The position numbers and the translations under genes are program-made. A DNA stretch of 63,413 nucleotides, the filler included, from Stramenopiles sp. TOSAG23-3 (lineage: Eukaryota): the NCBI GenBank assembly GCA_900128585.1. It is 6 parts of 6 records of this genome, joined end to end, with 100 filler letters (N's around TTAATTAATTAA, not from the genome) between each part and the next. Parts side by side here need not be neighbours in the genome. Positions count along the whole stretch, not along the records: positions 61,568 to 63,413 come from LT645322.1; 5 more parts are not named here. One strand, 5' to 3'. Of the stretch, positions 21,001 through 63,412 are shown one piece after another. A model generated the notes under the pieces. That model saw nothing but the letters and a program-made list of their open reading frames with translations. It searched no databases and was not told the origin of the DNA. Positions within the stretch are counted from its first letter, which is position 1, and each line of letters begins with the position of its first letter.

Positions 21001-22149
21001 TTATTTCCGCCTCCCTTGAAGGTTAAAATAGGATTTCATTTTGTCATAGACCAAAAATCGAATCGCATTATTCGGCAAAACTTTTAACGCATTCGGTGCC
21101 ATACCTTTGTAAAACCCAAATATGCCTTCCTGTTTTAACACGGTAGCAAAGGCGTTCGGAACGGAAGTGTACGTTTTCCCAGGTAGCTGCATGCGACGAC
21201 GGATTGTGTCGAGAGGAAAGCACATCGTTTGGGCGAACAACCCGGCGGCCGCGCCAAGGCCAAGGGTTACTAGGGTAGAGGACTCGTAGCTCGGGTATTG
21301 CCTATGCACCATGCTTTTTAGGTGGTCGAACGTCGCGAAATTGATTGCAATGAACGGGCCAAGGCTTAACAGGGTGGCGGCGTAACCTTTGTAAAATGTT
21401 CGAGCGCCACCTTCTTTCCAAATACTTGCCACGGAGCCACGGAAACCACGCAATTCTGGTTGGACGGAAAGTCGCAAACGAATTGTATCTAGCGGGTGGG
21501 TGACCGACGTCGCCGTGGCGCCCGCCATCGCACCCGCCAAAAGCCTATACTGAACAGTGAGGTTGCCATTATTATCTTCAAAGAATTGCTTGTATTTGTC
21601 ATAACTTGCGAATTGGGTGGCAGCATACGGTACCACCCGCACGCAGTTCACCATGTTCCCCCTCCACAGCCTCGCGGCACCTTCGTTCTCCACTATGTGC
21701 CGCAACGACTGCAGAATAGACGTGTACTGTGGCCGAATGGTTTTCCCCATGATCGTTTCCGTCTGCATTAAAATTTTGACTCTGTCGATAGGGGCAACAG
21801 TGGTCCGAGCCACCGCACCTGCAAGGCCACCACAACAAAACTGCAGGACGGTTCGAGTAAAGACTTCTCTCGCGCTAGCGACGGCCGCTTCCGCCTCTCG
21901 CTTCGCACGCTCGTCCGCCTGAATTTTATCTACGAGTACGCGAATAATGTGCAATAGCTCCTCCTGTTCTACCCGCTCTTTCCCCTCAGAAACCCGCCTT
22001 TCAATCGATCTCAACTTTTCCGTTACTGCCTTTTCAGACCTCTGCAGATCCCTCTCCGCCTGATTCAAGTACGCATTCGCCCTCTCCACCGCCAACGACG
22101 CTTCCTGCAGCGACGAGTCTGGCTTAATCTTTGAACCGCGCAGTACCAT
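21001..22149 (-). CDS. Mitochondrial carrier family (SLC25) protein, adenine nucleotide/CoA-carrier-like, with an N-terminal coiled-coil extension
   Basis: Three Px[DE]xx[KR] signatures (APIDRVK, HPLDTIR, FPLDTIRRRMQ) and LWRGN..NCVRVVPY. Confidence 0.9.
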   Translation of the reverse strand: MVLRGSKIKPDSSLQEASLAVERANAYLNQAERDLQRSEKAVTEKLRSIERRVSEGKERVEQEELLHIIRVLVDKIQADERAKREAEAAVASAREVFTRTVLQFCCGGLAGAVARTTVAPIDRVKILMQTETIMGKTIRPQYTSILQSLRHIVENEGAARLWRGNMVNCVRVVPYAATQFASYDKYKQFFEDNNGNLTVQYRLLAGAMAGATATSVTHPLDTIRLRLSVQPELRGFRGSVASIWKEGGARTFYKGYAATLLSLGPFIAINFATFDHLKSMVHRQYPSYESSTLVTLGLGAAAGLFAQTMCFPLDTIRRRMQLPGKTYTSVPNAFATVLKQEGIFGFYKGMAPNALKVLPNNAIRFLVYDKMKSYFNLQGRRK

Positions 22150-29765: not shown

Positions 29766-29865
29766 NNNNNNNNNNNNNNNNNNNNNNNNNNNNNNNNNNN
29801 NNNNNNNNNTTAATTAATTAANNNNNNNNNNNNNNNNNNNNNNNNNNNNNNNNNNNNNNNNNNNN
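29766..29865. other. Artificial contig linker
   Basis: 44 N + TTAATTAATTAA + 44 N. Confidence 0.97.
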
Positions 29866-30212: not shown

Positions 30213-33200
30213 ATGCTTACTTCAGCAAAGTCTTTGGCAAGGGCAGCGTTCTGCACCTTTTGCTTTTCTCTACTGGTAAGGAACGACTTCGTCAATGGAG
30301 GAGCGCCTGGTTTTGAACAGGTTGTCGGGGATGTGTCACAAATGCTAAAAAATCTGGCGGATGAGGAGTTGTGTGTTCCGGACATACAAGATTCCTACAG
30401 CAAAGCCACTTACGTGCGCAGTAACGAAGATGGGTCGAACATTTTGGACAAAATTGCGGAGGGGGTCAAAAAGACCGTACAAAGAATATTAATTGATCCC
30501 GTCGAAAGGATAAAGAGAAAGCTTGAAACGCAACTGTCTGCAGAAAATTTTGAGCAGCTGGAAAAAAGAGCAAAGGAACTGTACGACGACGGGCGATGGT
30601 CACCAGACTTCTGTCAAAACTTTCACGCCGAGGCCGAGCCTTACTCCGCCAGCTTCCTCCGCAAAGTGGACTTGACGAAAAGCTGTGCTGGTAACCCGTG
30701 GTATGCGAGAAATGAAACTCTTGAAGACACGCTCCTTTTCCAAGCTGCATTTGATCAAGGTGACATTGATGCAGAATTTAAGGAGAATATGAAGAGCGTA
30801 AAAACGCTGAAGTGGCAATATGTTGGTACCGCAACAGGATACCATCGCTTTTACCCAGCTGCACCTCGCAAGCCGTGGGGCTCGAGCACTGGTCGCTCGA
30901 TTCCTACCGAACAGAGAGACTGGGCAAATATTTTTTTCCTCCTCATTCTACCTGGATTAGTTTTCCACCTTTGGTTTTATAAAATAAAGCCTTACTATGG
31001 CATATGGTTCTTCGTCAAATCAAAGGATGGAAAGAGACTCGTGAAGCAACACTCTCGCGAAAACAGGGAGGGTCCCGACAAAGAAAAGAAAACGATCCGC
31101 AGCAGCCGCGTAGACGGCGCCGACGGGGAGATAGAAGAGAAAGACAGCACTGCCGATATGCATGATCTGGAGAAATATGCGTCACATGATACAACGATTG
31201 AAACAGGTCAGTTGTATAGCCGGCGCTTCATTGCTTACATTGCACTGGCACAGTTCTGGCTAACGTATGTTCCGTTTACGGTAACCCTGCTTGTTGGGTT
31301 CAAAACGACTCCTCAGTCCGACGGCGAGTTTGTTGATAAGTTTGGTGCAGTAAATTTTGAAACCATGGGACCGTTGTCTGGAGGACTGGTGGCAATTATT
31401 GTACTATGGGTTCTGGCAGTTATAGGACTAATATGCCAAACATTATTTATCTACAGCCAAGTGAACCAAATTGTTCGGGAACAGAATGATGACGATGGCG
31501 ACGAAGAGTCCAACGCCAAAAAAGGATTTGGGAGGAAATGTTCTTCGTATTTTTTCTTTGGTGTTGTAATTCCCTACATCTTGATGCATTTATCTTTATA
31601 TTTTCTAACTGATATCGATGCGTATGACCCGCGGACAAGGCCGTGGTACGTAAAAGCTGCGGGGGAGCCGAAGGACATGGTAATCATCATTGACTCCAGC
31701 GGATCTATGATGGAGCATGATCGAATGAAATATGCAAAAGCGGCAGCAAAAAAGGTGTTGACAACATTAAACGAGGATGACCGTGTGGCAGTAATTTCAT
31801 TCGCAACAGAAGCCCATTTCCCGGGTGTGGAATTTGTGACCGAAATAGAAGCTGCCAGAAAGAAAGGTGAGGGCGATCAATTTAACGATCGTGAAATTAG
31901 AACTCGTATGGAACGCCAGGAAAAAATTAGCCAAAACCCGTTTGATTTCACGTGTACTGACGGCCAGCACAAACGGATGGCTCCTGCAAATTACCATAAT
32001 AAGGAATTCTTTATGGATTTTATCGAGGGTATAAAACCAAGCGGGAGAACGAACTACATTGCTGCGTTCCGTGCAGCATTTGAATATTTAAATACTAGGC
32101 CCAATAATCATATTACACCGCGAAAGTCCGCTATTGTTTTCCTGACAGATGGTGCACCCACAGAACCTCACAAATCTGGAAAGAGAGAAGACTACGTTTT
32201 AAAGAATTTCAAAGAGGCGAAGAAGGTGCTGAACGAGTTGCGTGCGACAATGCAAAATCCACCTCATTTATTTACCTACGTGTTAGGCTCTGACATGAGT
32301 GAAGAGGAGCGCGTACAGCTGTCTGACATTACAAACATCCCCAAATTTATTGATGATGGTGACGTCGGAGATTTGATGGTGAGTATGGGAACTTACTATG
32401 AACAAGCGGACTACTTGTACGACTCCAAAACTGCGAAAACAGTTATGACCCTTCCCTATTATGATTATGATGGCCTAGGAGTTGTATTGACGGCAGCAGC
32501 GCCAATATTTCGCAACGTGGGGAATTTTAAAAATGTTACTGCAATTGCCTCCGAACAAGAACGATATGTTGGAGTTGTAGGAATAGATATGGCAGTAGCA
32601 GACATATTTAAGGATTTAGTGGATTCCACTCGGCATGGAAAGCGATCGTTTGCTTTCTTGATTGATTTCAGTGGTAGAGTTTTGTACCACCCCAACTTGC
32701 CGTCCCCGGAACAAAACACAGGTAATCAGCCTAAATTTGTGGACATTCAAGATTTATTGATCGTCCAATCGTGCTCTGGGGTGCATTCAATCTGGAACAA
32801 CACTGGTGGTGTTGATACCACAATGGTTAACTCGATTCGAACCGGTATGATGAGTGGGGGGTCCGGTTCACAGCGTTTAAAAATGACTATGTTGTACCCC
32901 AGAGGTGGCGCCTCGGAAGGAGCTAGTTCTGCCACATTCTGTGGGAAATTGCATTGGAAAAGAATCGATAATGCCGAATTTTCTCTTGGGTTCTTCCTCG
33001 AGGATGAAGACGCGACGCGGTATATTATTCCGGTGGATTCAGTAACACACAAAGAAACGACGAAGTACTTAGAAAGGGACACCGATTACTACCATCGCAT
33101 CGATGTCGTGCCATCTCCAGGCGCATATTTTGAGGACGGGTTCCCAGCCTGCGATGGCTTTTACGTTCAAGTTAACGCCTCGTTTAACGAAAGTTGCTGG

Positions 33201-36200
33201 AAGCTAGCCGCTTCGTCGTTTCAAAATTCTTATTATTATATACAGGAAGGCGACGAAGACAGAGGCAAGCCTTTAAAGGACCGGATAGAGAGAGTCAAAA
33301 CGTTGAATCGGTTGATAAACTCAGACGACACGAAATCAAAGCTTGACTTTGGAAAGATCGCCAGGCCTAGAGTTCGTGAAGACATATTTTTGACTCGAAA
33401 GGTCGAATCATGCTGGTTATCAAGAGTTGATCGTACTGTGGAAGGGACCAAGAGGGGGATAAACAGATACATTGGTACGGAAAATGGGGTTTTTAGGCAA
33501 TTGCCCTGTGCCCCACTCTCAAGATATTACGATCCTAGGAAACGACCGTGGTACATGCGCAGTTCGGAATACCCAAATTGGTATGCACTAAGCACTTACA
33601 TCGATGCGTTTTCCGGTAACCCGGTGACAACTTTGAGTAAGGGAATAATGCATAACCAAACTGTAAAGGCTGTTGCAGGGATAGATGTCAGCGTCGAGGC
33701 AATCGCTAAAATATTTCAAGTCGCTCTTCAACGTATTACTAACGAGGAATGGAAAACATTTTATGTTGTTGATCTTAGTGGTGCTTTGATTTATCATCCA
33801 GATATCGTTCAATTCAAAAGCTTGCTTAGCTCCACAGGATCGCCTCATTTGTCTAAACTTACAGGGGATAATGAGAAATGCCTGTCTGATCTGCTTGGCT
33901 GGGAAACAAGCATTTGCAAAGATTTATCATCGATGAAATACTTTGAGACGTCACAGTTAACTGGTGGGCTAGTGGGTTTGAGGGTGAGAGAAACACTAGT
34001 TGCCCAACGTATTCCAAATTCCAATGCTGTGTTGATAGTGAAAAAGAATAACATGGATTGTAAGATTCTGGAGGATAACACTATAACACAGGATGAAAAA
34101 TTTAGAAATTACTTTTGCAAAGACCCACCCTGCAAGGTTGTTGAAAAGCTGGATGCCTGCTCTAACAATGTCATTCCCTGGAAGAGCTGCTCCGGCGCAT
34201 GCCCCGTACCTTACGCAGGTGAGTACCAGACAATATACTATGATGGTGGCACTTCTCCGGAAGTAAAACAATTTATAGATAGTGGCAAATGGGGCAAAAC
34301 GGTACGATTTGACGTACACAAAGGTTCAGATGGCAAGGGACAGTCCCGGTACATATTTTATAAACCGAGCGATAATACTGATCAGTCAGGTAAGGTACGT
34401 TTCGCCTCGCCATATTCTTGTAATACTCAGAAAGGAGACTGCTTTGTGCAAGGTTCAACAGCACCCACGCGGCAAATAGTCCGCATGTCTGGGGTATGCC
34501 CGCAGCAGGTTCCCTCTGCAGGTAATTTTAAAGAAGAAATGAACCTTTGGTATTTCCCATGCATCAGCCTGTATTGGATAATAGCCATTTTCTTATTCGT
34601 TTCGGCCATATATTTCTTGGCTGTAAAGATTCGACGTGGAAACACAACGGTCAAGAAGCACATGTGGTGCTATTTTGCGCTGTTACTTTCTCCGGTTCTT
34701 TTGTGCTGCGCTGCCATTCAAATGTTTATGGTCGGCATAATATGGATTTCCCCTGTGGAGTACGACAAGTGGAAAGAAGAATTTTTTGATCCAAAAGGAA
34801 AACGGAGCGGTCGAACAGTCACTGAGCACTTTCTAGTTACTCCTAAATATTTTTGCGAATCTTTGTTGCATTTATTTTTAGTTCCAGCTTATATTTTGGG
34901 GACGGTCATAATTTCATCGAGCTCGATTTTACCCCCTCACTTTGCTAAGAATTACAGGGCATTTGTCAGAAACCTTGAGGCAAATGAAGAAATGGACCGG
35001 GAAGACCGGTGGATGAAATTTATCCCGGTGCATACGTATGTTGCTCTCAAAGATTGGTTCCTTTTTATATTATTCCCTGTTATTTTTGCATGGGTTGTCC
35101 TTGAGTTTGTTATGCTCTTGTCGTTGGCAATAATGGATTCCTACTTGTTTTCTTTGGCATGCGATGAACTTGGACCGGGGCAAGACCGTGCTGCGTTTGT
35201 CCTGAAGATGATCCGTTCCTTTCTTTCTGCCATTTATGGAGACGAAGAAGACCCCAAAAAGCATGTGTCTGAGCTGTTTTTGGTAATTCCAAAATATTTC
35301 GTTTTATCAATATTTGCTTTCGTATGGAAAACTTTTGAATTACCGATGTTTGCAGTGATACTTATTACAGGGCTACATGCAAAACGATGCTACCGAAAAA
35401 TGTTTGGGCTGTGGCAAGGCTACTACAGCTACTATGAACGATGGTACACTGTTGTTCCTACCCAATTTACGTGTCTAACGATTGATATAATAGCGCTATG
35501 CTTCGTCGTCTTGCCTTTAATATTGGGAGCATCGGTTGCTTTGCTAATATGGATACTAGTCGAAGTATTTTTAATGTGTCCTGTAATAGGCCTTTCTTAT
35601 GCTCCTGGTGGAGCATACTATTTAGATGATGTGTGGGAAAAAATAATGGAAACACCTGACGAACAAGAAACTCACGGCAAAGTTGAAAAACGCTCTATCA
35701 CCATTGAGATGAACAAGATGGAGGGTAAAACAAGCGAAGATGCAGTAGAAGATGTTAACAAAGGCGAAAATGAAGTGGATGATGCTTGGCTCGGTGTGAT
35801 TTTGCGAAAGGATTTTGCTAATAATGCCGTTGTAAGAGAAATTTACGCGAAGTGCAATAAGCATGAAACGGAAACCATAAAGAGGCTGAAGGATTTGAAT
35901 AAGTTCGTATTAGTCAGTGGCGACATTTGGAAGTCCTACAAAAAGTGGTTTTGCAATATTTTCTACAAGGCTACCATGGTTATCCCGTATTACTTCTACT
36001 TGGCCCTAAAACAGAACGCTGTGTTTTTTTTGAATTGTCTTCAATTCATTGTTGCAATGCCTATGTTCGTGTGCATCCTTTTTCCTTCTCCGGGAGAGTT
36101 GGTTTTTTTTGGGGCGTTTGGTACGGACCTTACTGTAGCATTGTGCTGGCAAGATTTAACTGCATATTGGAAAACAGATAAGACGGGTGAAGAAAAAGAG

Positions 36201-39200
36201 AAAAAAGGAAGATTACCTATTGTCACAGTATTGCACTATTTTCTGGAAACGTTTTTTTTGCAATGGATATGGATGCCTGTCGAACTTTGCTTATTTCTCA
36301 TATTAATGTTTACTTCATTTTTGCACGTGGAGTACCACCGCTGTCTGTTTCAACTAAGAAACAAAGCTCTTGGAAGATATGATAAAATGTACTTCACGGT
36401 CCCGCTTAGCTTTTTTCGGGGGGCATTCATTTTCAGTTACCGAATCTCCAGAACCGTTTTACTCTTTATTTTCACTTGTTTTTTATGTGTTTACTTTTTG
36501 TTAGAGTCTGTGCTTTTCCTGGTTTCTTGGTTCTTTGTTTTCTTGGTATATTGTTGTACTCTTGGGCTTATAGAAATCGAACACCAAATTTACCAGAACG
36601 AACTGATGGCTGGTATCAACTTCTTATACTCGGGAAAGAAGGAAGCGGGGGGGAAGAAAGTGGTGAAATGGAAAGAAAGAAAAGTCGGTCCTAAATCGAA
36701 CGGAAAAGATGCTGATGTCATTAAGAGGCAAGGGTCCTCCTTTCAATTACGACGGCAGTACACAGTAGTGCTGAGAACTTGGTTTGAGCGCGTAACAGAT
36801 CCACGGCTGTATTATGTGGTCCCCGTTTTCTTTATTAGAAGTTTGGCGTGTCTTATTTTTACTCTCGTTTTACTGCCATTTGTTGTTATCTCCGCTACGG
36901 TAAATTATACGGTTACATTTGTAGTCTACTGCGGGCCTGAGCGGAAGAATCTTGATGAGCGCCGTAAACAGCTGTGGGAAAAAGAAGAAATTACTCATAA
37001 CATTATGAACATAATAGAGATCCACCTGTTTTCGTCGTATGAATTTGTGCCAAAAACCTTGCTTTTTTTAATTTCATTGCCATTGCAGATAGTCCTCTTT
37101 GCAATCATATGCATTTCCCCCCCATGCTTAGCTCTGAAATGTATAAGAAGATTATGTGATCGAAACACGTCATATGCAGAGAAGGCGTACAAAACTATAC
37201 CTTCGACTTTCCTGGATGTGTGCAAATGGTGGCTTGCTTTGTTTCTAAAGTATGATCTACCTGTACTGTTCGTCCTTGTATGCTTAATTTTGTTGGTACT
37301 ATTTGCCGTTGTGTTTGTGCTGGAGCTAAGCATGTATCTGTTAGTGTGCATTACGGTCGTACAGGCAGTTGAGTGCAAAGACGAACTAGAAGAGTTGCTC
37401 GGTGAAACGGGCGGTAAAAAAGCGATAAATGTCCGAAGAATGTCAGCCCACTATTTATCGCAGGATATGCACGCTTCAGTTGTTGAGATTAATCCCGTCC
37501 CAGCCGTTGTTACCAACAGCTTTGTGGGCGTGAAGGAAGACAAAGAAGCGGCGGAGGAAAAAGACGCATATTCGAACAACGCTTCGCTGGAACGACTTAT
37601 CCAGCTGGAAGTGTTGCCGTATGAACAAACGGTTTTGGTATATGACAAATGTGATAAAGATGAAGAAAAGGCAAGGCAAAGACTAATGAAGCTGGTCCAG
37701 TACGACATGTTAATTATGAAATTACGCAAGCTGAGTCCTGGACTTTATGATCGCGAAAAAATTCTGTGCGTCTTGGAGCAATGTGGTTACAATGAAAGGA
37801 AAGCTAGGGACGAGATTGTAATGAATACACTCACCATATGGCTTGTCAGGGCCAGGAATTTTCTTTCGATAGTCCCTAAACATTTGTCAAAAGCCATTCT
37901 GTTTTACATAAGGCAAACAATATGCTTGCCCTTTTATATCATTTCGCTCGCGATGGTACTACTTACTTCTATCTTGCTTGTCTTCACTGTGCAGTTATGG
38001 ACCAAGCTTATGGATAAAAAGCGGCCTCTGTCTGATCGAATAATGCCGTTTTATCGCCCAACGTTTGAGAATTTCTATTTGTCAATACTTTTCTATTTAT
38101 TCCTTCCGATGCAAGCAGTCATGTCATTGATTATTTTGGGTTGTGGGTTTGAGGCAAAACGTTGGTGGATAGAACTATTCTTCAACCCAGAAAAAGTTGC
38201 TTGGAAATTGCGCATATTTTACACGACATGGAAATATTTCATTCTGACGATGAGAAAAACCGGGGCTGAGGCCGGGGACTTTGCTGATGCAGCAGGGGAA
38301 TTTGTCGCCACGAAAATTAAGAAAATGGTAGGTGGTGCCGGGGGTATTGTCGTGGCTCTTCTTAAATTGTTCATTGCACTCTGTGCAATTGCTATTGCTG
38401 TGCCTATTGGGGCAGTGGAATTGTGTTTCTTTATAATCATCTGCATTTTTCGTGTCGAATACTATGATTGTATCTATGAAATTAAACATGGGGATACGCT
38501 TTGGGATGCGCATTGGGTTTTTCGAGCTTTGTGGGCAATCCCCCCTCACTTTTTTATCACCCTTGTTTTTCTTGCATACTTCCCTTTCCTTGTGTTAATG
38601 TTTGCGGTAATCTCGGGGACAGGAGTTCAACTCAAACAATGCTTAAAAGATCTAGGCTATTGGTATGACGAGGATAAGTTAGCATTGACAGACTTAGAGC
38701 TTACCGAGATTTTTGAAATGGAAGTAGTGGACAAGTTCCTTCGTTGCCCTTCAATGGAATCCAATGACGAGAAAAGGGATGATGTTTGTGAATTATTGTC
38801 CCTATATAAGTACCATATTATTCAGGAGAGGGATAGAAACAATAAAAATGCAACCAATTATTCCTTGTCTGATAAAGAGTTTGATCGTATCCGAGCGCGT
38901 TTAAAGCCAGTTTTGCTTAATGCTTGCATTAAGAAAATCAATGCGATCGAAGGTAGCCTTAAGAAAGTTTTACAAAACAGGAAAGAAGAGCGACGATATG
39001 CTCGATATTGGACTGCTATTCCTAAGAATTTTATCGAAATGTGCGCAATCATTTTGAAGTTGTTGCTAAATTTTACAATTGTGACCACTAAATATTCATT
39101 CAAGGGTCTTTTGTTCTTTTTTAAATTGCTAATTTTGGACATAATAATCATGATACCTTTGACAGTTTCGTACACGGCAATAATGCTTTCCATGTTTTTA

Positions 39201-41282
39201 GTGGTTTTCTTTTCTGTTCAAAATACCGTATGTATTAAGCAAATAAAGGAAGCCTGGAAAAGGAATAAATCAGCAGCTATTGCTGAAAAAAATACTGCCA
39301 AAGTTGCAGAGGCTGTAGAAGCGGGCAAAGGAAAGGTTGAAAAGTCTACAGAAATAAAGCAAACCGATACCACGAAAGATAGCACGGGTGGTATTTACAT
39401 AGAAATCTTCAGAATAATGGTTAAGCATTTTCTGACTGCACTTATGTTTTGGGTCTACTTTCCATTTTGGTTATTAGGTATAATATTCACTACGGTGTGT
39501 CCACCGTGTAGCTACTCGCGCCAGATGTGGTCAGACTTGTTGTGTAATAAGAAATTGTCTAGGGAGGAAAGAATTTGGGGTGTTGTGGGTAAGTATGCTT
39601 TGAAAACGTTGGGGTACTGTGCGGAGAAAGTTGGCCATTGCTTAACTACTTGCTTTAAATGTGGCGCAACATCTCTTCGCATGCTGTCTTATTTTGTAGC
39701 CCTTTTAGTCACATTTCCCTTGCTTACTCTGTGGAGTGTTACTGTTACGGTCACTGTAGTGGCAGGCATAGTATTTTTGATACCTTGCCTGCAAGTATTA
39801 TTTAGAGGGCCTCCAAAACATGCAGCAGCCGCATTAGAAAAAAGAGACAAAGAATTTGTGAACTGGAAGAAAGTCGGCTGGATTTGTAGTGTAACAATGA
39901 GATGTTTCTTCTACAGCATCTTCCTATGGTTGCTTGGTGGCCCATGCTTGTTTTATTTGCTGTTACTGTACTGTTTTATTGGTGCAAGGTCGAAAGCAGA
40001 AAAGGATGAACTTAGCTACATTACGTCGATCGTATTTGCAAAGCACGCCAGCTATTGCAAAAGGAAATTTGAGGATCGTGCAGACAAACCATCCATAGAA
40101 TCTTACAGTATGGAATTCAAAAACTGTAAAGAAGATACAGTTATAACAGCATACGAAACGGCACTCAAGCGTGGAAATGAAAAGCTTATCACAACATTTT
40201 TGAAGGACGGAGGAATCGCGTTTCAGTTTGAAATTTTGGACGGGGTGTGGCTTCTGTACCCCCTGTCTCTGCGATTACTATTTCGACACTTAAAGTCTGC
40301 CTTGCTTGGTTTGTTTGGCTTGTGGCGCCTTTGTATAAAGGCTTTAATTGCGATGTTTTTTGCGTCGTTGTGGTTAGGTTTAGGTGTTCCGTGTATCCTT
40401 GTGGTTGTTCCGACTCCCTTTCGTAGCGATATGTTTCTCGAATTTAAAACTAATGGTGGCCATGTGAAGAACCCGAAAAACTTGCTTTTAACTTGGAAAT
40501 ATTTCTGTTATGCATTGCCTTGGATTATTTTGTTCCCGGTGCAGTATATAATTGCGTTTCCAATAGTTTCTTGTTTCCAAAACAAAGAGGAAAAGGACCT
40601 TAGGGTTGAGGAGTACAAAAAGGTGGGTTCACCGAAGAAGTATTGGCTGTATGCAATGTATGCGGCCAACCCCATCTTTATTCGCATTGCGCGCACTAAA
40701 GTGGGCCCGGGGGTCTACAAAGTTTTCTTTTTGTGCTCGAAGCTTCTCGGTGCTGTAGTTCTTTTGCCCTTTGTTATAGCTCTTCTCTTGTTGGAAGGGC
40801 TCATGCTGGTTACATGCGCAATCAGCGGGATATTGGTCCTGGATTTCCACATTATTAAGGCAATACGACAGTTCTACCAGGAGGAAAAAGATTATTTTCT
40901 ATTGGGACTAGTCATTCCCCAGTATTTTCTCCTCGCGGTCATATTTATAATGTGGGCACCATGTTTCTGGCTTTTGAGGGGATTGGTAATTCTTTTTGGT
41001 GGGAAAGAACGCCGCAGGCAACTGAAGGAGGACCTTCTCAATCCTGAAGGAGACCATTTTTATCTTGTGTGGCCTGTTTTGTTCCACTTTTTTTTTACAT
41101 TTACTTCGCTGTTGCGAATCCCATGCGCCTTGGCTCTTCTTCCGTGTGCTTGGATAACTCGTGGTGCCGCACACATCGTATTTTTTCCGTGGCGTCAGCG
41201 TGGTGCTAAATATTTTCACGTGTGGCCAAAGAAGTTGGTAGTTTTTTTTCGGGACTCAAAACCGTTTCGAATGGCTTTATGA
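30213..41282 (+). CDS. Giant membrane protein: alpha2delta/CACHD1-like VWA_N-dCache-VWA-dCache ectodomain followed by a long repetitive polytopic region
   Basis: WQYVGTATGYHRFYPA, YDPRTRPWY..PKDMVIIIDSSGSM (MIDAS DxSxS, then GRTNY and FLTDG), PYYD..G.V.T..VVGID, AFLID..G.VLYHP, second YYDPRKRPWY..YIDA..VAGID. Dozens of hydrophobic helices follow from about 34570. Confidence 0.85.
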   Translation: MLTSAKSLARAAFCTFCFSLLVRNDFVNGGAPGFEQVVGDVSQMLKNLADEELCVPDIQDSYSKATYVRSNEDGSNILDKIAEGVKKTVQRILIDPVERIKRKLETQLSAENFEQLEKRAKELYDDGRWSPDFCQNFHAEAEPYSASFLRKVDLTKSCAGNPWYARNETLEDTLLFQAAFDQGDIDAEFKENMKSVKTLKWQYVGTATGYHRFYPAAPRKPWGSSTGRSIPTEQRDWANIFFLLILPGLVFHLWFYKIKPYYGIWFFVKSKDGKRLVKQHSRENREGPDKEKKTIRSSRVDGADGEIEEKDSTADMHDLEKYASHDTTIETGQLYSRRFIAYIALAQFWLTYVPFTVTLLVGFKTTPQSDGEFVDKFGAVNFETMGPLSGGLVAIIVLWVLAVIGLICQTLFIYSQVNQIVREQNDDDGDEESNAKKGFGRKCSSYFFFGVVIPYILMHLSLYFLTDIDAYDPRTRPWYVKAAGEPKDMVIIIDSSGSMMEHDRMKYAKAAAKKVLTTLNEDDRVAVISFATEAHFPGVEFVTEIEAARKKGEGDQFNDREIRTRMERQEKISQNPFDFTCTDGQHKRMAPANYHNKEFFMDFIEGIKPSGRTNYIAAFRAAFEYLNTRPNNHITPRKSAIVFLTDGAPTEPHKSGKREDYVLKNFKEAKKVLNELRATMQNPPHLFTYVLGSDMSEEERVQLSDITNIPKFIDDGDVGDLMVSMGTYYEQADYLYDSKTAKTVMTLPYYDYDGLGVVLTAAAPIFRNVGNFKNVTAIASEQERYVGVVGIDMAVADIFKDLVDSTRHGKRSFAFLIDFSGRVLYHPNLPSPEQNTGNQPKFVDIQDLLIVQSCSGVHSIWNNTGGVDTTMVNSIRTGMMSGGSGSQRLKMTMLYPRGGASEGASSATFCGKLHWKRIDNAEFSLGFFLEDEDATRYIIPVDSVTHKETTKYLERDTDYYHRIDVVPSPGAYFEDGFPACDGFYVQVNASFNESCWKLAASSFQNSYYYIQEGDEDRGKPLKDRIERVKTLNRLINSDDTKSKLDFGKIARPRVREDIFLTRKVESCWLSRVDRTVEGTKRGINRYIGTENGVFRQLPCAPLSRYYDPRKRPWYMRSSEYPNWYALSTYIDAFSGNPVTTLSKGIMHNQTVKAVAGIDVSVEAIAKIFQVALQRITNEEWKTFYVVDLSGALIYHPDIVQFKSLLSSTGSPHLSKLTGDNEKCLSDLLGWETSICKDLSSMKYFETSQLTGGLVGLRVRETLVAQRIPNSNAVLIVKKNNMDCKILEDNTITQDEKFRNYFCKDPPCKVVEKLDACSNNVIPWKSCSGACPVPYAGEYQTIYYDGGTSPEVKQFIDSGKWGKTVRFDVHKGSDGKGQSRYIFYKPSDNTDQSGKVRFASPYSCNTQKGDCFVQGSTAPTRQIVRMSGVCPQQVPSAGNFKEEMNLWYFPCISLYWIIAIFLFVSAIYFLAVKIRRGNTTVKKHMWCYFALLLSPVLLCCAAIQMFMVGIIWISPVEYDKWKEEFFDPKGKRSGRTVTEHFLVTPKYFCESLLHLFLVPAYILGTVIISSSSILPPHFAKNYRAFVRNLEANEEMDREDRWMKFIPVHTYVALKDWFLFILFPVIFAWVVLEFVMLLSLAIMDSYLFSLACDELGPGQDRAAFVLKMIRSFLSAIYGDEEDPKKHVSELFLVIPKYFVLSIFAFVWKTFELPMFAVILITGLHAKRCYRKMFGLWQGYYSYYERWYTVVPTQFTCLTIDIIALCFVVLPLILGASVALLIWILVEVFLMCPVIGLSYAPGGAYYLDDVWEKIMETPDEQETHGKVEKRSITIEMNKMEGKTSEDAVEDVNKGENEVDDAWLGVILRKDFANNAVVREIYAKCNKHETETIKRLKDLNKFVLVSGDIWKSYKKWFCNIFYKATMVIPYYFYLALKQNAVFFLNCLQFIVAMPMFVCILFPSPGELVFFGAFGTDLTVALCWQDLTAYWKTDKTGEEKEKKGRLPIVTVLHYFLETFFLQWIWMPVELCLFLILMFTSFLHVEYHRCLFQLRNKALGRYDKMYFTVPLSFFRGAFIFSYRISRTVLLFIFTCFLCVYFLLESVLFLVSWFFVFLVYCCTLGLIEIEHQIYQNELMAGINFLYSGKKEAGGKKVVKWKERKVGPKSNGKDADVIKRQGSSFQLRRQYTVVLRTWFERVTDPRLYYVVPVFFIRSLACLIFTLVLLPFVVISATVNYTVTFVVYCGPERKNLDERRKQLWEKEEITHNIMNIIEIHLFSSYEFVPKTLLFLISLPLQIVLFAIICISPPCLALKCIRRLCDRNTSYAEKAYKTIPSTFLDVCKWWLALFLKYDLPVLFVLVCLILLVLFAVVFVLELSMYLLVCITVVQAVECKDELEELLGETGGKKAINVRRMSAHYLSQDMHASVVEINPVPAVVTNSFVGVKEDKEAAEEKDAYSNNASLERLIQLEVLPYEQTVLVYDKCDKDEEKARQRLMKLVQYDMLIMKLRKLSPGLYDREKILCVLEQCGYNERKARDEIVMNTLTIWLVRARNFLSIVPKHLSKAILFYIRQTICLPFYIISLAMVLLTSILLVFTVQLWTKLMDKKRPLSDRIMPFYRPTFENFYLSILFYLFLPMQAVMSLIILGCGFEAKRWWIELFFNPEKVAWKLRIFYTTWKYFILTMRKTGAEAGDFADAAGEFVATKIKKMVGGAGGIVVALLKLFIALCAIAIAVPIGAVELCFFIIICIFRVEYYDCIYEIKHGDTLWDAHWVFRALWAIPPHFFITLVFLAYFPFLVLMFAVISGTGVQLKQCLKDLGYWYDEDKLALTDLELTEIFEMEVVDKFLRCPSMESNDEKRDDVCELLSLYKYHIIQERDRNNKNATNYSLSDKEFDRIRARLKPVLLNACIKKINAIEGSLKKVLQNRKEERRYARYWTAIPKNFIEMCAIILKLLLNFTIVTTKYSFKGLLFFFKLLILDIIIMIPLTVSYTAIMLSMFLVVFFSVQNTVCIKQIKEAWKRNKSAAIAEKNTAKVAEAVEAGKGKVEKSTEIKQTDTTKDSTGGIYIEIFRIMVKHFLTALMFWVYFPFWLLGIIFTTVCPPCSYSRQMWSDLLCNKKLSREERIWGVVGKYALKTLGYCAEKVGHCLTTCFKCGATSLRMLSYFVALLVTFPLLTLWSVTVTVTVVAGIVFLIPCLQVLFRGPPKHAAAALEKRDKEFVNWKKVGWICSVTMRCFFYSIFLWLLGGPCLFYLLLLYCFIGARSKAEKDELSYITSIVFAKHASYCKRKFEDRADKPSIESYSMEFKNCKEDTVITAYETALKRGNEKLITTFLKDGGIAFQFEILDGVWLLYPLSLRLLFRHLKSALLGLFGLWRLCIKALIAMFFASLWLGLGVPCILVVVPTPFRSDMFLEFKTNGGHVKNPKNLLLTWKYFCYALPWIILFPVQYIIAFPIVSCFQNKEEKDLRVEEYKKVGSPKKYWLYAMYAANPIFIRIARTKVGPGVYKVFFLCSKLLGAVVLLPFVIALLLLEGLMLVTCAISGILVLDFHIIKAIRQFYQEEKDYFLLGLVIPQYFLLAVIFIMWAPCFWLLRGLVILFGGKERRRQLKEDLLNPEGDHFYLVWPVLFHFFFTFTSLLRIPCALALLPCAWITRGAAHIVFFPWRQRGAKYFHVWPKKLVVFFRDSKPFRMAL

Positions 41283-42597: not shown

Positions 42598-43149
42598 TTC
42601 TGAATAATTAACCCTAATATTTTATAGATTAGATACTAATAAAAACTATAGACTAGTTACATCATCTTATTTTCTTCTCTACAGGTAATAATACAGGTAG
42701 GTAAGGAAAAATACCCGTACAGGTACCAGGTACCGTACCACCTATAAATGTACACTTATTACATTACTCATCCTCGCAACTGCTGGTGTAAACGGTATCC
42801 CCCAACGAGAATATCGGTGCCTACCCGTATCAGGTTTCCTTCCCGGTACGGTAGTCGTTCTTCTTTTCTTCTCTATAAAAAAAAATTTTTTTTTTAAATA
42901 ATAATATAATGCATAGAGTCGTCGTCGTCTGCTGAAAAAAAACACAACAAAAGTAAATACTAGTATAAAACCAAAGTAGTAAATAATGAACACCGGTAAG
43001 CATCGCACTCCCCCCCCCTTCTCTCTCAGATCTTTTGTCGCAAATTGAGAGCCTACACCAGAAGTGATATTCCTTTTAACGTTTTTCACACTAGAAAAGC
43101 GAAGAGATTTTTAGGAAACAGATTGTTGCAATCTTGTCGCTATCAAAAC

Positions 43150-44370
43150 ATGCTCCTCCTTTACCATGTTTGTTTGGTGTTCGTTTTTCTAACGTTTAGC
43201 TGCCACGCCCGTGTCTATTTTACGGAAACTTTTGATGATGATGGGGTAGTTGGGGAAGGGGTTTATGAAAAGTGGCAAACAGCAGAAGGATCTTCTGGTG
43301 AGAATATGGGGGACTGGGGGATAGTATCTTCATCTATACCATTCCGGTTTGATATTGAGGTGGAATCTTCGAAGTTGTATACGTTTCCGGGAGAAAGTGT
43401 GCACGAACAACACTTGGACCGTGGTTTGAAGACACTAAACAATTTTTCCTATTACCGTTTGAGTAGCATGTTGACGACTCCGTTTTATAGCAAAGGGACA
43501 ACTTTATACTTGCAATTTTCATTGAGGCTTGATCAAATTGATGGACTTGACTGTGGCGGGGCTTACGTTAAACTTTTCCCAGGTGGACTTAAACCAAAAG
43601 AGCTAGACGGTAATACTCCTTATGCATTTTTGTTTGGTCCAGACTTATGCGGTTCAACATCTCAAGGGACAAAAATAATTATTGGGTATGATTCAACACA
43701 GCAACCAGGCATGAATGTGAATCGTAGAAATGTTCGTCTTCAAAAGAAGCTGCATTGTGAAATGGACAAAGCGACCCACTTGTACACTCTGATCGTGCGC
43801 CCCGACAACACCTACGAATACCACATCGACGGGTTGATGTCCGACCATGGGACCCTTGGCGAACATTTTGAAGCGCTTCTGCCTCCAAAGCTGGTCTCAA
43901 ATTCGTCTGCTAAGAAACCTAAAAACTGGGTAGATGACCCTTTCACACCCGAAGCTTTGGATCCAACCTTGAAAGAAGCAAACAACCAACCAAAGTATAT
44001 TCCCGACCCAACAAAGCAAAAACCAGAAAAATGGAATGCTGAAGAAGACGGAGTATGGGAGCCCCCGTTGATTCCAAACCCCCGATGGAGGGCGGGCTCA
44101 GAGCCTCGTATGGTAAGAAACCCGAAGTACAAAGGGCCTTGGAAAGCTGGCCTTGTAAGAAATCCGGAGTACTCTGAGGAACGAGCAAAGTCATTATACC
44201 AGCAATGTAATCCATGCGAGCATATAGGGTTTGAATTGTGGCAAGTGGATGCGGGGACTGTTTTTGACGATATTTTGATAACGGACTCGGAAGATGAGCT
44301 AATGGAAGAAACGCGAAGAGTGCAAGAAAAACTTGCGTGGGAGAGATATACTCTGTCGGGCAAAAAGTGA
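43150..44370 (+). CDS. Calreticulin/calnexin-family lectin chaperone, soluble, lacking the acidic tail
   Basis: Signal peptide from ATG 43150; VYFTETF, LDCGGAYVKL, FGPDLCG, THLYTLIVRPDNTYE, P-domain repeats KPKNWVD, KPEKWNAEEDGVWEPP, NPKYKGPW; IGFELWQV..GTVFDDILITD. Confidence 0.88.
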   Translation: MLLLYHVCLVFVFLTFSCHARVYFTETFDDDGVVGEGVYEKWQTAEGSSGENMGDWGIVSSSIPFRFDIEVESSKLYTFPGESVHEQHLDRGLKTLNNFSYYRLSSMLTTPFYSKGTTLYLQFSLRLDQIDGLDCGGAYVKLFPGGLKPKELDGNTPYAFLFGPDLCGSTSQGTKIIIGYDSTQQPGMNVNRRNVRLQKKLHCEMDKATHLYTLIVRPDNTYEYHIDGLMSDHGTLGEHFEALLPPKLVSNSSAKKPKNWVDDPFTPEALDPTLKEANNQPKYIPDPTKQKPEKWNAEEDGVWEPPLIPNPRWRAGSEPRMVRNPKYKGPWKAGLVRNPEYSEERAKSLYQQCNPCEHIGFELWQVDAGTVFDDILITDSEDELMEETRRVQEKLAWERYTLSGKK

Positions 44371-44648: not shown

Positions 44649-44748
44649 NNNNNNNNNNNNNNNNNNNNNNNNNNNNNNNNNNNNNNNNNNNNTTAATTAA
44701 TTAANNNNNNNNNNNNNNNNNNNNNNNNNNNNNNNNNNNNNNNNNNNN
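44649..44748. other. Artificial contig linker
   Basis: 44 N + TTAATTAATTAA + 44 N. Confidence 0.97.
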
Positions 44749-53487: not shown

Positions 53488-54711
53488 TTATAATTCTACG
53501 CTCACGTATGGGAAAAACTCCGCTCCAGCTCCATCGTTTTCCTCCGTGCCATACTCTTCCTCGGCTAGGTGGCCATAAAGCTTCCCCAACTGTTTCCGAA
53601 CCTCCATCATTTTCCCATCGTTTACGTCCAACAGCAAAGACGTAAACTCCGGGGGCAGCCCATAGCGTAACACTGATTCTATGAAAACCTGCACCGATTT
53701 AATGTGCAACAATCCGATCACCGATTCCCCAAAATGGACTTTTGCCCACTCCAACGTTTTTCCTTCGTACAGGTTGAAATCAGAGTCGAGTTTCGCGGCT
53801 TCCGTAAATGCCTGCAGCGTTTTCTCTGGGTCGACCGTAAAGTCCGGGCGGACGACGTATCGTTTCGCCCTACACTCGTTGTAGAAAGTGTCTGCAATTC
53901 CCCACCCGTCGTCTGCCCTCTGGGACTTCAAGACGATGAGACTGAACAGCACGCAATCCTTGTCCGACAAAATCCTACACAACGACCCCGGGACTACCAA
54001 TGGGACCACCGAACCAACTCCGTCCTCTCCGCCGCCAAGGGACTCGTGGGTGTTTTGGAACTGTTCAACGAGGGAGTTCGGCACTCCGATCAGTACAGTT
54101 CGCAGAAACTGGGAGTTGACGAAATCTGTGCGCTTTAGGGCGACGCCAGTCTGCTCTACGATGCAAGGTGGTATTCTCGTGCCATCGAACGTGACCAAAT
54201 TCTCCACCGCCAATACCCCGTGCAGATTGGCGTTCAGCAAGTTTCCTCGGCGGCTTCTTTCCGCTTTTTGCCGCAGCTGTTTCTTTTCGGCGTAGGCTAC
54301 TTGAAACTGTCGCAGTTCCTCTTCCATCTTTGATACGCTCATCTGCAGCAACTTTGTCAGGTCTGCTAGGGACCGCGACGTGGGGTACTTCATTTCCTTC
54401 CACTGGAAAGTCTTTGCGTACTGGAACTTGTCCTTCCCTTCCACGTCGCTCCAGTGCGCCGTGCTCCGCTCAAAGCGTTGGGCATGTATCTCCCGACCTA
54501 GTTTCTCAATCTGGGAAACGAGCATTGCGCACGCCGCGTTCAGCTTTGCCAACTCATCACTAAGGGATATAAGAACGTTCAGCGTCCCAACCCTGAGCTG
54601 GGGCATGGAGTACCGTGTAACATCGCATAGCGCGCCTATGCTTCGGTGAAGTGCGTCCTCGTTGTAGTGCTCCGTAGGAACAGTTACGATCTGATAACCA
54701 AGCCCTCGCAT
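53488..54711 (-). CDS. ATP6V1C: V-type H+-ATPase subunit C
   Basis: LRVGTLNVLISLSDELAKL, FQWKEMKYP, GNL, VVPGS, HIKSVQVFIESVLRYGLPP, terminal FFPYV. Confidence 0.9.
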   Translation of the reverse strand: MRGLGYQIVTVPTEHYNEDALHRSIGALCDVTRYSMPQLRVGTLNVLISLSDELAKLNAACAMLVSQIEKLGREIHAQRFERSTAHWSDVEGKDKFQYAKTFQWKEMKYPTSRSLADLTKLLQMSVSKMEEELRQFQVAYAEKKQLRQKAERSRRGNLLNANLHGVLAVENLVTFDGTRIPPCIVEQTGVALKRTDFVNSQFLRTVLIGVPNSLVEQFQNTHESLGGGEDGVGSVVPLVVPGSLCRILSDKDCVLFSLIVLKSQRADDGWGIADTFYNECRAKRYVVRPDFTVDPEKTLQAFTEAAKLDSDFNLYEGKTLEWAKVHFGESVIGLLHIKSVQVFIESVLRYGLPPEFTSLLLDVNDGKMMEVRKQLGKLYGHLAEEEYGTEENDGAGAEFFPYVSVEL

Positions 54712-59520: not shown

Positions 59521-59620
59521 NNNNNNNNNNNNNNNNNNNNNNNNNNNNNNNNNNNNNNNNNNNNTTAATTAATTAANNNNNNNNNNNNNNNNNNNNNNNN
59601 NNNNNNNNNNNNNNNNNNNN
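59521..59620. other. Artificial contig linker
   Basis: 44 N + TTAATTAATTAA + 44 N. Confidence 0.97.
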
Positions 59621-61467: not shown

Positions 61468-61567
61468 NNNNNNNNNNNNNNNNNNNNNNNNNNNNNNNNN
61501 NNNNNNNNNNNTTAATTAATTAANNNNNNNNNNNNNNNNNNNNNNNNNNNNNNNNNNNNNNNNNNNN
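61468..61567. other. Artificial contig linker
   Basis: 44 N + TTAATTAATTAA + 44 N. Confidence 0.97.
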
Positions 61568-62548
61568 TTTTCTCCCGGGTATGTCTACATCAATTATGTT
61601 ACCATTCTTGGGCATTTGGCTTCTGTTATCGGTATGCTAATAATATATGCACCACGAGAACCTCTAAATGTCCCGTATACGGAAACGTACCTTGCATGGG
61701 AACGGAACAAAACCGTACTGGTGAACGGGGTCAATACATCGACATGTCCCGGTGAGCCTAGAAATACTGCAAACGATGGTGCATTCTGTCTCTCGAGTAA
61801 AACAGACTTTTTACATTGTGGTGACGACAGGTGTGGGTTGGATTATGGGTGGCTCATTATATCTTTCCATCTCTTGTCCTTCTTCTTCCAATTGCTGGCA
61901 GCGCTAACAGATCATTCTGAATTACTTCAACGATTTCTATGTGGGTATCGCTACAGTGACATGATTCGGCGTGGAAGAAATCCATTGCGTTTTGTTGAAT
62001 ATAGCATTAGCGCTTCGATTATGTTGATCATTATTGCCATTATCAATGGTATTTTTGATATCCATCACCTATTCGCAATTGGTGTTCTTACATGTTCCTG
62101 TCAGCTGTGTGGACTGGTTGTCGAGTACTTGGACGATTGTCAATTGGGTCTAATGTGGATCAACCATTTGAACGGGTGGCTAACCTTCTGCTCCGCATAT
62201 TACATTATTGCAAGGGCTTTCTTTGCATCTTTGAGTTATGATCCGGACATTCAACCACCGGGATTTGTGTATGCGATCGTGGTAGCCATATTCCTCCTCT
62301 ACGCATCTTTTGGTATCGTTCAGTTGGTAGAACTGACCTGTTTGACTTGTCCACTGGGTAAAAATTGGTGTACTACGGAACGTACGGGGGAATGGACTAG
62401 AATATGGTGTCCAGCTTGTCGCACAAAAAGCAAAGGAAAACTAAGGTGCAACCCATTGTACAAAGAAATGGTGTTTGTTACATTATCGTTGGGTGCAAAA
62501 CTGGTTTTGGGGTGGCTTTTGTATACAAATGTATTTATGAACACATAA
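61568..62548 (+). CDS. Heliorhodopsin, 5'-truncated, probably viral
   Basis: Frame is open from the contig edge. TM1 INYVTILGHLAS (N..H), TM3 NPLRFVEYSISASIM (R, E counterion), TM5 HLNGWL, TM6 LYASFGIVQ, TM7 EMVFVTLSLGAKLVLGW (retinal-binding Lys in SLxAK). Confidence 0.92.
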   Translation, partial: FSPGYVYINYVTILGHLASVIGMLIIYAPREPLNVPYTETYLAWERNKTVLVNGVNTSTCPGEPRNTANDGAFCLSSKTDFLHCGDDRCGLDYGWLIISFHLLSFFFQLLAALTDHSELLQRFLCGYRYSDMIRRGRNPLRFVEYSISASIMLIIIAIINGIFDIHHLFAIGVLTCSCQLCGLVVEYLDDCQLGLMWINHLNGWLTFCSAYYIIARAFFASLSYDPDIQPPGFVYAIVVAIFLLYASFGIVQLVELTCLTCPLGKNWCTTERTGEWTRIWCPACRTKSKGKLRCNPLYKEMVFVTLSLGAKLVLGWLLYTNVFMNT

Positions 62549-62557
62549 TGCATAGAA

Positions 62558-63013
62558 ATGAGACGAACGTACCTCTCCGATTCAAGTGATGAAGAGACCA
62601 AGTACAACCCACAAACCTACCATATCCTTGTACTAGGGGGCCAAGTTGGAAAAACTTCGTTCATACACCGAGTTACACAAAATTACTTCACAATGTACTA
62701 TGAGAAAACTCAAACGCTAGAAATACATAAACCATTGCAGGTAGGTGAGTCAAAATGGTGTTTTTGGGACCTTCCACCGCATGTATACGATGGGATCAAA
62801 CAAATGGATTTGGTTTTATTGTGTTTTAATAGCAAAGAGACAAAAAAGTTTGCAGTGGAAAAATGGAGAAAGATTCAAAGTACAATGAAGTATTTACCTC
62901 CAGCGATGATGGTAGGGATACGCATAAAAGAAAAGGGGGCACACTACATCGATAGTATGAGTACAGAAGGAATTTCTAAATTAATGTTTAATATATCGAA
63001 GCTACTACCATAA
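62558..63013 (+). CDS. Degenerate Ras-superfamily small GTPase
   Basis: YHILVLGGQVGKTSFIHR (shortened G1), YEKT (G2), FWDLPP (at the G3 position), VLLCF, MMVG, and DSMSTEGISKLM C-terminal helix; no CaaX. Confidence 0.75.
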   Translation: MRRTYLSDSSDEETKYNPQTYHILVLGGQVGKTSFIHRVTQNYFTMYYEKTQTLEIHKPLQVGESKWCFWDLPPHVYDGIKQMDLVLLCFNSKETKKFAVEKWRKIQSTMKYLPPAMMVGIRIKEKGAHYIDSMSTEGISKLMFNISKLLP

Positions 63014-63022
63014 GGTCTTTTT

Positions 63023-63412
63023 TTATTCCCATCTAAAGCCATTCCATGTACGGTTGTAGATAACTTTATCGCTTTTGCTTATGTTCTCCGACCCCCACAT
63101 GGGCTGGAGGTTGGTGTAATGAAAACATCGTCTTTGTTGTTCGGGATCGCTCAAGTCAAAGGAGGCACAGGGCATCATATGATCGGCGTGCCATGTTCCA
63201 TAGTTCTCCCATGTCATTCCCTGTTGGAATCTCATCGTTAGATGGTCTTGTAGGTGCATAAAAGAACAACCAAGCATTGTCATGGTTGGAGCACTCTTGA
63301 CATTGCCTTTGAGTACATTGTGTACGCGGGAACGTAAATTTTTTGCAAGACGGTACTGTGGATCGGTACGGTAACGTTTCTTACTGCGTGCATTTCTTTT
63401 TTTCTTGTATTC
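63023..63412 (-). CDS. HNH-type endonuclease of the prasinovirus endonuclease VII-like family, 5'-truncated
   Basis: Frame open to the window end: KKRYRTDPQYRLAKNLRSRV..LGCS..GMTWENYGTWHADHMMPCASFDL..CFHYTNLQPMWGSENISKSDK, a pattern typical of NCLDV and phage genes. Confidence 0.85.
   Translation of the reverse strand, partial: EYKKKRNARSKKRYRTDPQYRLAKNLRSRVHNVLKGNVKSAPTMTMLGCSFMHLQDHLTMRFQQGMTWENYGTWHADHMMPCASFDLSDPEQQRRCFHYTNLQPMWGSENISKSDKVIYNRTWNGFRWE

Follow-up and report, generated by a model that had tools for sequence, protein, structure and literature searches.

Introduction

For most heliorhodopsins (HeRs) we know of no function. Viral members of the family have been described in mirusviruses and giant viruses (PMC10132985; coccolithovirus V2HeR3, PMC9448325), and the text of the latter report presents one coccolithovirus protein, V2HeR3, as a proton transporter. 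According to the main text of the mirusvirus reports, HeRs occur in 64% of mirusvirus genomes and are highly expressed (PMC10132985), and heliorhodopsins and a 'Ras-related protein' are both among the mirusvirus core gene clusters (PMC10132985, PMC12768974). Here we analyze a HeR gene and the gene immediately downstream of it, which encodes a degenerate, Rab-like GTPase. Both lie on record LT645322.1, near the end of a 63,413-nucleotide stretch of DNA (hereafter, the window) from Stramenopiles sp. TOSAG23-3 (assembly GCA_900128585.1). On balance, we favor the reading that these are two independent viral host-manipulation genes that are adjacent through an old synteny block.

As far as the text of those reports goes, the window HeR shares with the mirusvirus and giant-virus proteins the Pfam Heliorhodopsin domain, the counterion Glu, the retinal-binding Lys, its carriage by a virus and its occurrence in marine metatranscriptomes. 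The clade of the window differs from them in a long, Cys-bearing loop between transmembrane helices (TM) 1 and 2 and in a Cys-rich insertion between TM6 and TM7, both known here from sequence alone. The downstream protein can be set beside the mirusvirus 'Ras-related protein' cluster by description only: here, too, mirusvirus-like contigs encode small Ras-superfamily proteins, several per genome, whereas the family of the window protein is devoid of the DxxG, NKxD and SAK motifs and of a lipid anchor. With pseudoGTPases and atypical GTPases, as Rnd3/RhoE, the pG domains of p190RhoGAP, AAGAB and IFT22/RabL5 are portrayed in the accounts consulted, it shares a Ras-like fold, degenerate G motifs and conservation in spite of lost catalytic residues; it has no specific sequence kinship to any of them, and its family possesses an N-terminal acidic motif of its own. 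Finally, bacterial HeR genes likewise have a partner gene at their side, for a soluble protein or a membrane protein: glutamine synthetase (PMC9529153) or an ABC transporter (PMC11109279). Those pairs are prokaryotic operons for which the text of the reports gives measured binding, whereas the window pair comes from a eukaryotic virus, lies in a long collinear block and is known from its genes alone.

Conservation of the gene pair and separate occurrence of its members

An earlier note on this DNA had described co-oriented genes 9 bp apart, a HeR with its counterion Glu and retinal Lys in place, and a degenerate GTPase (GGQVGKT, DLPP, no NKxD, no lipid anchor), all of which is borne out. Both open reading frames (ORFs) lie on the plus strand, with the HeR stop at 62548 and the GTPase ATG at 62558; the two HeR residues align with those of 48C12 and are invariant in relatives, and the GTPase has the motif losses described (Table 1).

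Loci were gathered from viral contigs, from metagenome contigs and via the HeR, and both genes were mapped together with their neighbors. A scan of viral contigs with the window GTPase alone gave no match, and its relatives were reached via the HeR and via alignments. Thirteen distinct loci with enough upstream sequence were assessed; L012 and L014 (fewer than 200 bases upstream) and L017 (a weak match to the P-loop only) were left out of the linkage count. L001 is identical to L002, L013 is the same contig as L031 and L044, and L009 holds the tail of the HeR only.

The HeR adjoins the GTPase in 10 of the 13 loci. The genes are co-oriented in nine of these, namely the window itself, L009, L010, L001, L003, L011, L013, L015 and L016, and the HeR is inverted in L034, where it stands head to head with the GTPase. 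In the remaining three (L007, L008 and L018) the GTPase occupies the same site and the HeR is missing. Collapsing close relatives leaves about eight lineages, six of them with a HeR. L010, which has the full block, encodes proteins 94% (HeR) and 87% (GTPase) identical to those of the window. In L016 the values drop to 34% and 33%, and the HeR belongs to a well-separated clade, clade II; it could represent old orthology with fast change or an in-place replacement. No clade-II HeR was found on scanning viral contigs, so that the genomic context of this clade is represented by L016 alone.

The pair is embedded in a block with the common order F9(+), RING protein(-), 136-aa MG-start protein(-), multi-pass membrane protein(-), F2(-), [HeR], pseudoGTPase(+), [F10], Arf-like GTPase(-), F5(+) and thymidylate synthase(+). 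L001, L003, L010, L011, L013, L016 and L034 share this order, as do L007, L008 and L018 except that they lack the HeR. About ten genes are collinear, and F2 is as constant a neighbor of the HeR as the GTPase is. The adjacency of HeR and GTPase is conserved to no greater degree than that of the roughly ten genes around it, and no linkage in excess of general synteny was found among these loci: the block is collinear, each of the two genes also occurs alone and one HeR is inverted. The earlier note had named a lack of conserved linkage as an outcome that would speak against a joint function; linkage is present in 10 of 13 loci, but it is not specific to the pair.

The presence/absence pattern separates the two genes in both directions. 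In a tree built from two proteins of the block (F3+F4), the HeR-less L007 and L008 are sister to the HeR-bearing L034 (support 96/93), so that the simplest history is one in which the HeR was lost and the GTPase stayed; L018 is a second HeR-less lineage. Conversely, four clade-I HeRs (L032, L033, L035 and L036; 43–48% identity) have no block genes within 4 kb, and these unlinked proteins nest among the linked ones in the HeR tree. The HeR of L035 lies in G004, an 849-kb bin that is rated complete and carries five matches to the capsid of nucleocytoplasmic large DNA viruses (NCLDV), which marks it as a nucleocytovirus. A search of G004 with the pseudoGTPase profile revealed no orthologue, only generic Ras matches (best E 1.6e-7); for comparison, a true orthologue in G003 scores 1e-30 with the family profile. 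Since some loci have the GTPase without the HeR and others the HeR without the GTPase, each gene works alone in some virus.

As a separate observation, the presence of the L035 HeR in a nucleocytovirus bin, nested within HeRs of the mirusvirus block, is consistent with HeR transfer between virus phyla; the text of Gaia et al. 2023 (PMC10132985) suggests such transfer between mirusviruses and nucleocytoviruses.

The divergence between the window and L010 (4011-5456) is uneven. Synonymous divergence (dS) rises from 0.14 for the HeR to 0.61 for the GTPase. At the nucleotide level the identity is 91–100% over the 3' two-thirds of the HeR (from ~61800), with a core of about 180 bases (62018-62197) that is 100% identical, compared with 81–88% in the TM1–TM2 loop region and 82–89% within the GTPase. 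This profile looks like mosaic ancestry and suggests recombination or gene conversion between strains. Because dS differs about four-fold, it also suggests that HeR and GTPase do not always travel as one unit.

The heliorhodopsin

The HeR ORF is open from the first base of its contig, 61568, up to the stop that ends at 62548. It matches Pfam PF18761 (Heliorhodopsin) with an E-value of 7.4e-32 (111 bits, against a cut-off of 26.7) and the solved heliorhodopsins of the PDB at E ~1e-13. Because 61568 directly follows an artificial linker, it marks a contig end and no gene start; compared with the full-length L010 protein (362 aa, 94% identical), about 36 N-terminal residues are absent. In the alignment of HeR relatives the counterion Glu and the retinal Lys are invariant (8/8 and 9/9, respectively). 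Relatives with 57–58% identity are found on IMG/VR contigs of 56, 134 and 179 kb, and L010 itself is a metagenome contig of 45.7 kb. The ratio of nonsynonymous to synonymous divergence (dN/dS) for the HeR is 0.256.

Given the known topology of HeRs, the basic N-terminal tail of full-length relatives and the sequons, the long TM1–TM2 loop would face the lumen or the outside. By the same usual topology, the Cys-rich TM6–TM7 insertion is predicted to be cytoplasmic. This insertion is present in the four block-linked clade-I HeRs that were aligned and in none of the four unlinked ones (4/4 versus 0/4), and the basic N-terminal tail occurs in three of the four block-linked proteins (L034 has no tail) and again in 0/4 of the unlinked.

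A probable Rab-like pseudoGTPase family

By sequence, the relation of the downstream protein to the Ras superfamily is distant. Pfam Ras matches it with 21.6 bits, equal to the cut-off, and Pfam Roc with 23 bits, under the cut-off of 27; the orthologue in L001 scores higher with both (Ras 29 bits, Roc 35.7 bits). The best PDB sequence match of the window protein is Rab23 (E 0.002). Its AlphaFold2 (AF2) model has a pLDDT of 85.7, and the top matches of this model in Foldseek are Rab8a, Rab23 and Rab21 (E ~2e-8, TM-score 0.68–0.72), with 10–19% identity to solved GTPases in the structural alignment among the matches listed. The predicted fold is the G-domain of the Ras superfamily.

Of the 339 candidates in a profile search, 50 clusters, mostly 160–176 aa long, reached E<=0.001, and motif counts were taken over 40 aligned members of this family. 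The acidic, Ser-rich N-terminus is present in 40/40 members and is retained in the HeR-less L018. Across the family, the Gly-Lys of the P-loop and the switch-I Thr never vary, the Lys is followed by Thr or Ser in every member, and the switch-II Asp shows hardly any variation. By contrast, DxxG is found in 0/40, an NKxD-like string in 1/40, SAK in 0/40 and Gly2 in 0/40; a Cys lies among the last five residues of 4/40 members, none of which has a CaaX. In the window protein the G4 and G5 sites read VGIRIKE and DSMST, with neither [NT]KxD nor SAK, and its C-terminus, LLP, has no Cys, which together with the missing Gly2 leaves it without a lipid-anchor motif. A canonical Walker A is kept in 35/40 members, while the shortened P-loop is confined to five (5/40). 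These five cluster representatives make up the subclade of the window and are 78–93% identical. Nucleotide binding has probably been lost in this subclade.

The family profile matches RhoE/Rnd3 best in the PDB (2.6e-13), and Rab23, Ran and Rab29 follow about equally (E 1e-13 to 1e-11), so that no specific GTPase subfamily can be named by sequence comparison. A lead to IFT22/RabL5, given at 0.95 by the language-model Atlas, was rejected, as IFT22 is absent among the 60 best PDB profile matches.

Pairs of GTPase genes from the short-P-loop subclade have dN/dS values of 0.105, 0.095 and 0.087. Values of about 0.1 imply that the gene is under purifying selection and is not decaying. The concept of a pseudoGTPase fits this family, with a G-domain fold, loss of the catalytic motifs and conservation by selection.

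Origin of the contig

The window is made up of six separate contigs of 14857, 14808, 14783, 14772, 1847 and 1846 bases, cut by five identical 100-base linkers. Each linker consists of 44 N, TTAATTAATTAA and 44 N and is artificial, as are any gene neighborhoods that span it. The HeR and GTPase genes sit on the last contig (61568-63413, 1,846 bases). The earlier note had treated the stretch as a single compact genome and had let the HeR start at 61568; neither holds, the first in view of the six contigs and the second in view of the contig end and the missing N-terminal residues. Its placement of the pair in a virus stands.

The relatives of the pair lie on 50–179 kb IMG/VR contigs with gene content of the mirusvirus type. 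For G002 (179 kb, with terminal repeats), 121 ORFs of at least 150 aa were scanned with Pfam. They include PolB, RNAP beta, PCNA, TK, ThyA, M16, two trypsin-like peptidases, Snf7 and a Snf2 helicase, together with many RING proteins, RabGAP-TBC, PI3/4-kinase-FYVE, Arf and three more Ras-family genes. G001 encodes a TATA-binding protein (TBP), and no match to the NCLDV capsid was found in G001–G003. Functions found on G002 and G001 are those that the text of the published surveys describes as characteristic of mirusviruses, whereas nucleocytoviruses have them rarely or not at all (PMC10132985, PMC12768974). As the gene content, with this typical accessory repertoire and no NCLDV capsid, matches published mirusvirus functions, we infer that the contig is mirusvirus-like. 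In its own right, G002 (L019-L027) carries an unusually rich membrane-traffic set for one viral contig, the pseudoGTPase included.

On the remaining contigs of the window (1-59520), eukaryotic genes of cellular type lie in long ORFs without introns, separated by very short spacers. Among these are genes for V-ATPase C, calreticulin, a mitochondrial carrier, a kinesin, a cyclic-nucleotide-gated (CNG) channel and a 3,689-aa VWA-Cache protein. The nearest named relative of the V-ATPase C is that of a MAST-4 stramenopile (56% identity), and the non-viral contigs have the look of a MAST-type stramenopile. The contig of 1,846 bases, by contrast, is viral and was co-assembled with DNA of this heterotrophic stramenopile. 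Infection, ingestion and integration are indistinguishable from 1.8 kb.

Occurrence in RNA libraries and the adjoining nuclease gene

The stretch is present in runs of 14 studies, including seven RNA rows. In three metatranscriptome runs from two studies, contigs with >=99% identity extend over both genes and bridge the 9-bp spacer. A contig over two genes is no proof of one transcript, and DNA carry-over may be involved. These RNA-library contigs stop within ~25 bases of the GTPase stop (62987-63014); that they give no cover past ~63014 is no evidence that the nuclease ORF downstream is silent.

This nuclease ORF occupies the place that the Arf-like gene takes in the closest relatives, L009 and L010. 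Pfam gave nothing for it at E<=1, and it has no similarity to the HNH gene of G002. In one DNA run (X1) the region 63056-63241 reaches a depth of 132–230, against 22 in the flank, with several diverged copies. The ORF looks like a multi-copy mobile gene, which probably explains why the contig ends here.

Other genes of the block

The upstream neighbors in the block (L001 3974-5821; also in L003, L007, L010, L013, L016, L018 and L034) include none with a Pfam family. The MG-start protein has 136–159 aa, and its conserved part starts with MGxY, a possible N-myristoylation site; the multi-pass membrane protein ends in ...FKSHEL/FKSHEI. Judged from such sequence features, these neighbors and the Arf-like gene may constitute a membrane or envelopment module.

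Table 1. Positions of the features discussed, counted along the whole window
Feature	Position	Strand	Evidence or remark
HeR gene, 326 codons plus stop, 5'-truncated by the contig end	61568..62548	+	Pfam PF18761, PDB HeRs, L010
Long TM1-TM2 loop with four Cys and NxT/S sequons	61676..61852	+	
Counterion Glu (RFVEYS)	61997-61999	+	aligned to the E of RWVEYS in 48C12
Cys-rich TM6-TM7 loop insertion, 7 Cys, two CxxC	62339..62449	+	alignment of HeRs
Retinal-binding Schiff-base Lys (SLGAK)	62498-62500	+	aligned to the K of SLVAK in 48C12
Spacer of 9 bp, HeR stop to GTPase ATG	62549..62557	+	identical in L010
Rab-like pseudoGTPase gene, 151 codons plus stop	62558..63013	+	
N-terminal acidic Ser-rich motif MRxTYLSDxSDEE, family-wide	62558..62596	+	
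P-loop GGQVGKT, one residue under the length of Walker A GxxxxGK[ST]	62636..62656	+	
WDLPPH at the switch-II DxxGQ position	62765..62782	+	Rab23 alignment
Endonuclease VII / His-Me-finger nuclease ORF, open at the window end	63023-63412	-	phrog_1035, E 1.6e-11 (PHROGs)
Contig joiner 5' of the HeR	61468..61567		sequence before the joiner belongs to a different contig
Artificial joiners	14858-14957, 29766-29865, 44649-44748, 59521-59620, 61468-61567		identical linker sequence
Additional gap of 98 N	20684-20781		
Example regions with cellular genes	53488-54711, 43045-44370, 21001-22149, 30213-41282		

Discussion

Two independent viral genes that an old synteny block keeps side by side is the reading to which we give the greater weight. 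It draws on the gene identities, the fold, the motif losses, purifying selection, synteny, the presence/absence pattern and the presence in RNA libraries. The contig would be a piece of the genome of a large, mirusvirus-like DNA virus of marine protists. The HeR would be an intact retinal protein that probably works by itself in membranes of the host or the virus, either as an ion or proton device driven or gated by light or as a sensor. The downstream protein would belong to a virus-borne family of Rab-like pseudoGTPases. This family retains the fold, together with the P-loop Lys-Thr, switch-I Thr and switch-II Asp, but its G3 Gly, catalytic Gln, NKxD, SAK and lipid anchor are gone, as is one P-loop residue in the subclade of the window. 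The most likely role of such a protein is that of a scaffold or decoy, locked in a single state or nucleotide-free, and it may form part of a viral membrane-traffic toolkit, as Arf, Ras/Rab-like proteins, RabGAP-TBC, Snf7 and PI3/4-kinase-FYVE are encoded on the same viral contig.

Several points weigh against this reading, and most of them speak for a two-gene light-signalling module, as the earlier note had proposed. In such a module the anchorless protein would dock on the cytoplasmic face of the HeR, at the basic tail and the Cys-rich TM6–TM7 loop, and be released or re-shaped in the slow photocycle, coupling light to host trafficking or signalling. The two genes adjoin in most of the loci assessed, with no more than 9–29 bp between them in all nine that are co-oriented, and a spacer of this size, bridged by RNA-library contigs in three runs of two studies, would fit co-expression. 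The adjacency has outlasted deep divergence: it is retained in L016 despite a HeR of the other clade, and two HeR clades at one spot could mean selection for the neighborhood. The pseudoGTPase family has no membrane anchor of its own. The virus-specific elements predicted to be cytoplasmic are found solely in block-linked clade-I HeRs, a pattern that is confounded by phylogeny, and the text of two reports on prokaryotes describes HeRs that act through proteins encoded beside them (PMC9529153, PMC11109279). Apart from the module, the mirusvirus assignment is weakened in that an HK97-type capsid gene was not identified, no Pfam model for an HK97-fold capsid, portal, terminase or triplex gene having matched at E<=1e-5 among the 121 ORFs of G002 in a scan that used no dedicated profile. 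Against a module stand the block of about ten genes, which is equally collinear and in which F2 is an equally constant neighbor of the HeR; the loci L007, L008 and L018, in which the GTPase keeps its site although no HeR is present; the inverted HeR of L034; HeRs of the same clade without the GTPase in other viruses, the complete-rated nucleocytovirus bin among them; the N-terminal motif of the pseudoGTPase, which is kept in the HeR-less L018; and the roughly four-fold difference in dS between the two genes (0.14 versus 0.61, window/L010). A complex prediction for the L010 HeR (362 aa) and the pseudoGTPase scored 0.00, and as it was run without alignments or controls it counts neither way. The presence/absence pattern does not favor light signalling by the pair, and we consider this explanation unlikely.

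Two further explanations concern the origin of the pair and the activity of the downstream protein. The pair might be cellular or endogenized, that is, stramenopile genes or an integrated, decaying viral element with a GTPase pseudogene in the making. The other contigs of the window, with cellular genes such as a V-ATPase C nearest to that of MAST-4, would agree with this, as would a contig too short to show flanks, the shortened P-loop and the mobile nuclease gene next to the pair. Yet every long contig with close relatives is virus-like, including the 45.7-kb L010 with its full block; the dN/dS of the GTPase is that of a selected gene; the short P-loop is common to all five representatives of the subclade; and the stretch recurs across the 14 studies, in RNA rows as well. 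A cellular or endogenized pair is, in view of these findings, highly improbable. Regarding activity, the downstream protein could instead be a working nucleotide switch, an atypical Rab/Rnd/IFT22-like GTPase or an ATPase that uses His75 in the manner of the catalytic His of DxPGH GTPases, and could act on host trafficking independently of the HeR. This proposal concerns the GTPase only and is compatible with two independent genes. The (nearly) invariant P-loop Lys-Thr, switch-I Thr and switch-II Asp would suit a switch, as would the full Walker A of most family members and the best PDB profile match to Rnd3/RhoE, itself an atypical GTPase; the IFT22/RabL5 clusters that the Atlas feature search lists at 0.95 are a lead only, not borne out by the 60 best PDB profile matches. 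On the other side, the subclade of the window is one P-loop residue short, the motif for guanine specificity is missing (NKxD-like in 1/40 members, SAK in 0/40) and the G3 Gly is found in 0/40. A working switch is thus doubtful, with a modest chance of being correct.

HeRs and 'Ras-related proteins' are already listed as core functions of mirusviruses. In the published text on mirusvirus HeRs and GTPases, supplementary tables aside, we did not find the adjacency of the two genes stated, nor the degeneracy of the GTPase family, its acidic N-terminus or its fixed place in the block. The block setting, with an Arf-like GTPase, the MG-start protein and the multi-pass membrane protein, points to a viral membrane-traffic or envelopment module, which was not found described in the literature searched. 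In addition, the contig gives a hint that a mirusvirus-like virus may be connected with a heterotrophic MAST-type stramenopile, although co-assembly by itself is no proof of infection.

There is a slim chance that the block HeRs are light receptors with a cytoplasmic adaptor of their own, a pseudoGTPase held at the membrane by the basic tail and the Cys-rich, possibly zinc-binding TM6–TM7 loop and released or re-shaped in the photocycle. If this were true, the virus would possess a light-timed handle on host Rab/Arf trafficking, and the pseudoGTPase would be the first transducer known for a heliorhodopsin of the eukaryote type; a defined, conserved neighbor is in any case a cheap candidate for a HeR partner. 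Even without a partnership with the HeR, the downstream gene represents a family of Rab-like pseudoGTPases encoded by viruses, which is widespread, under strong selection and conserved in its acidic N-terminus.

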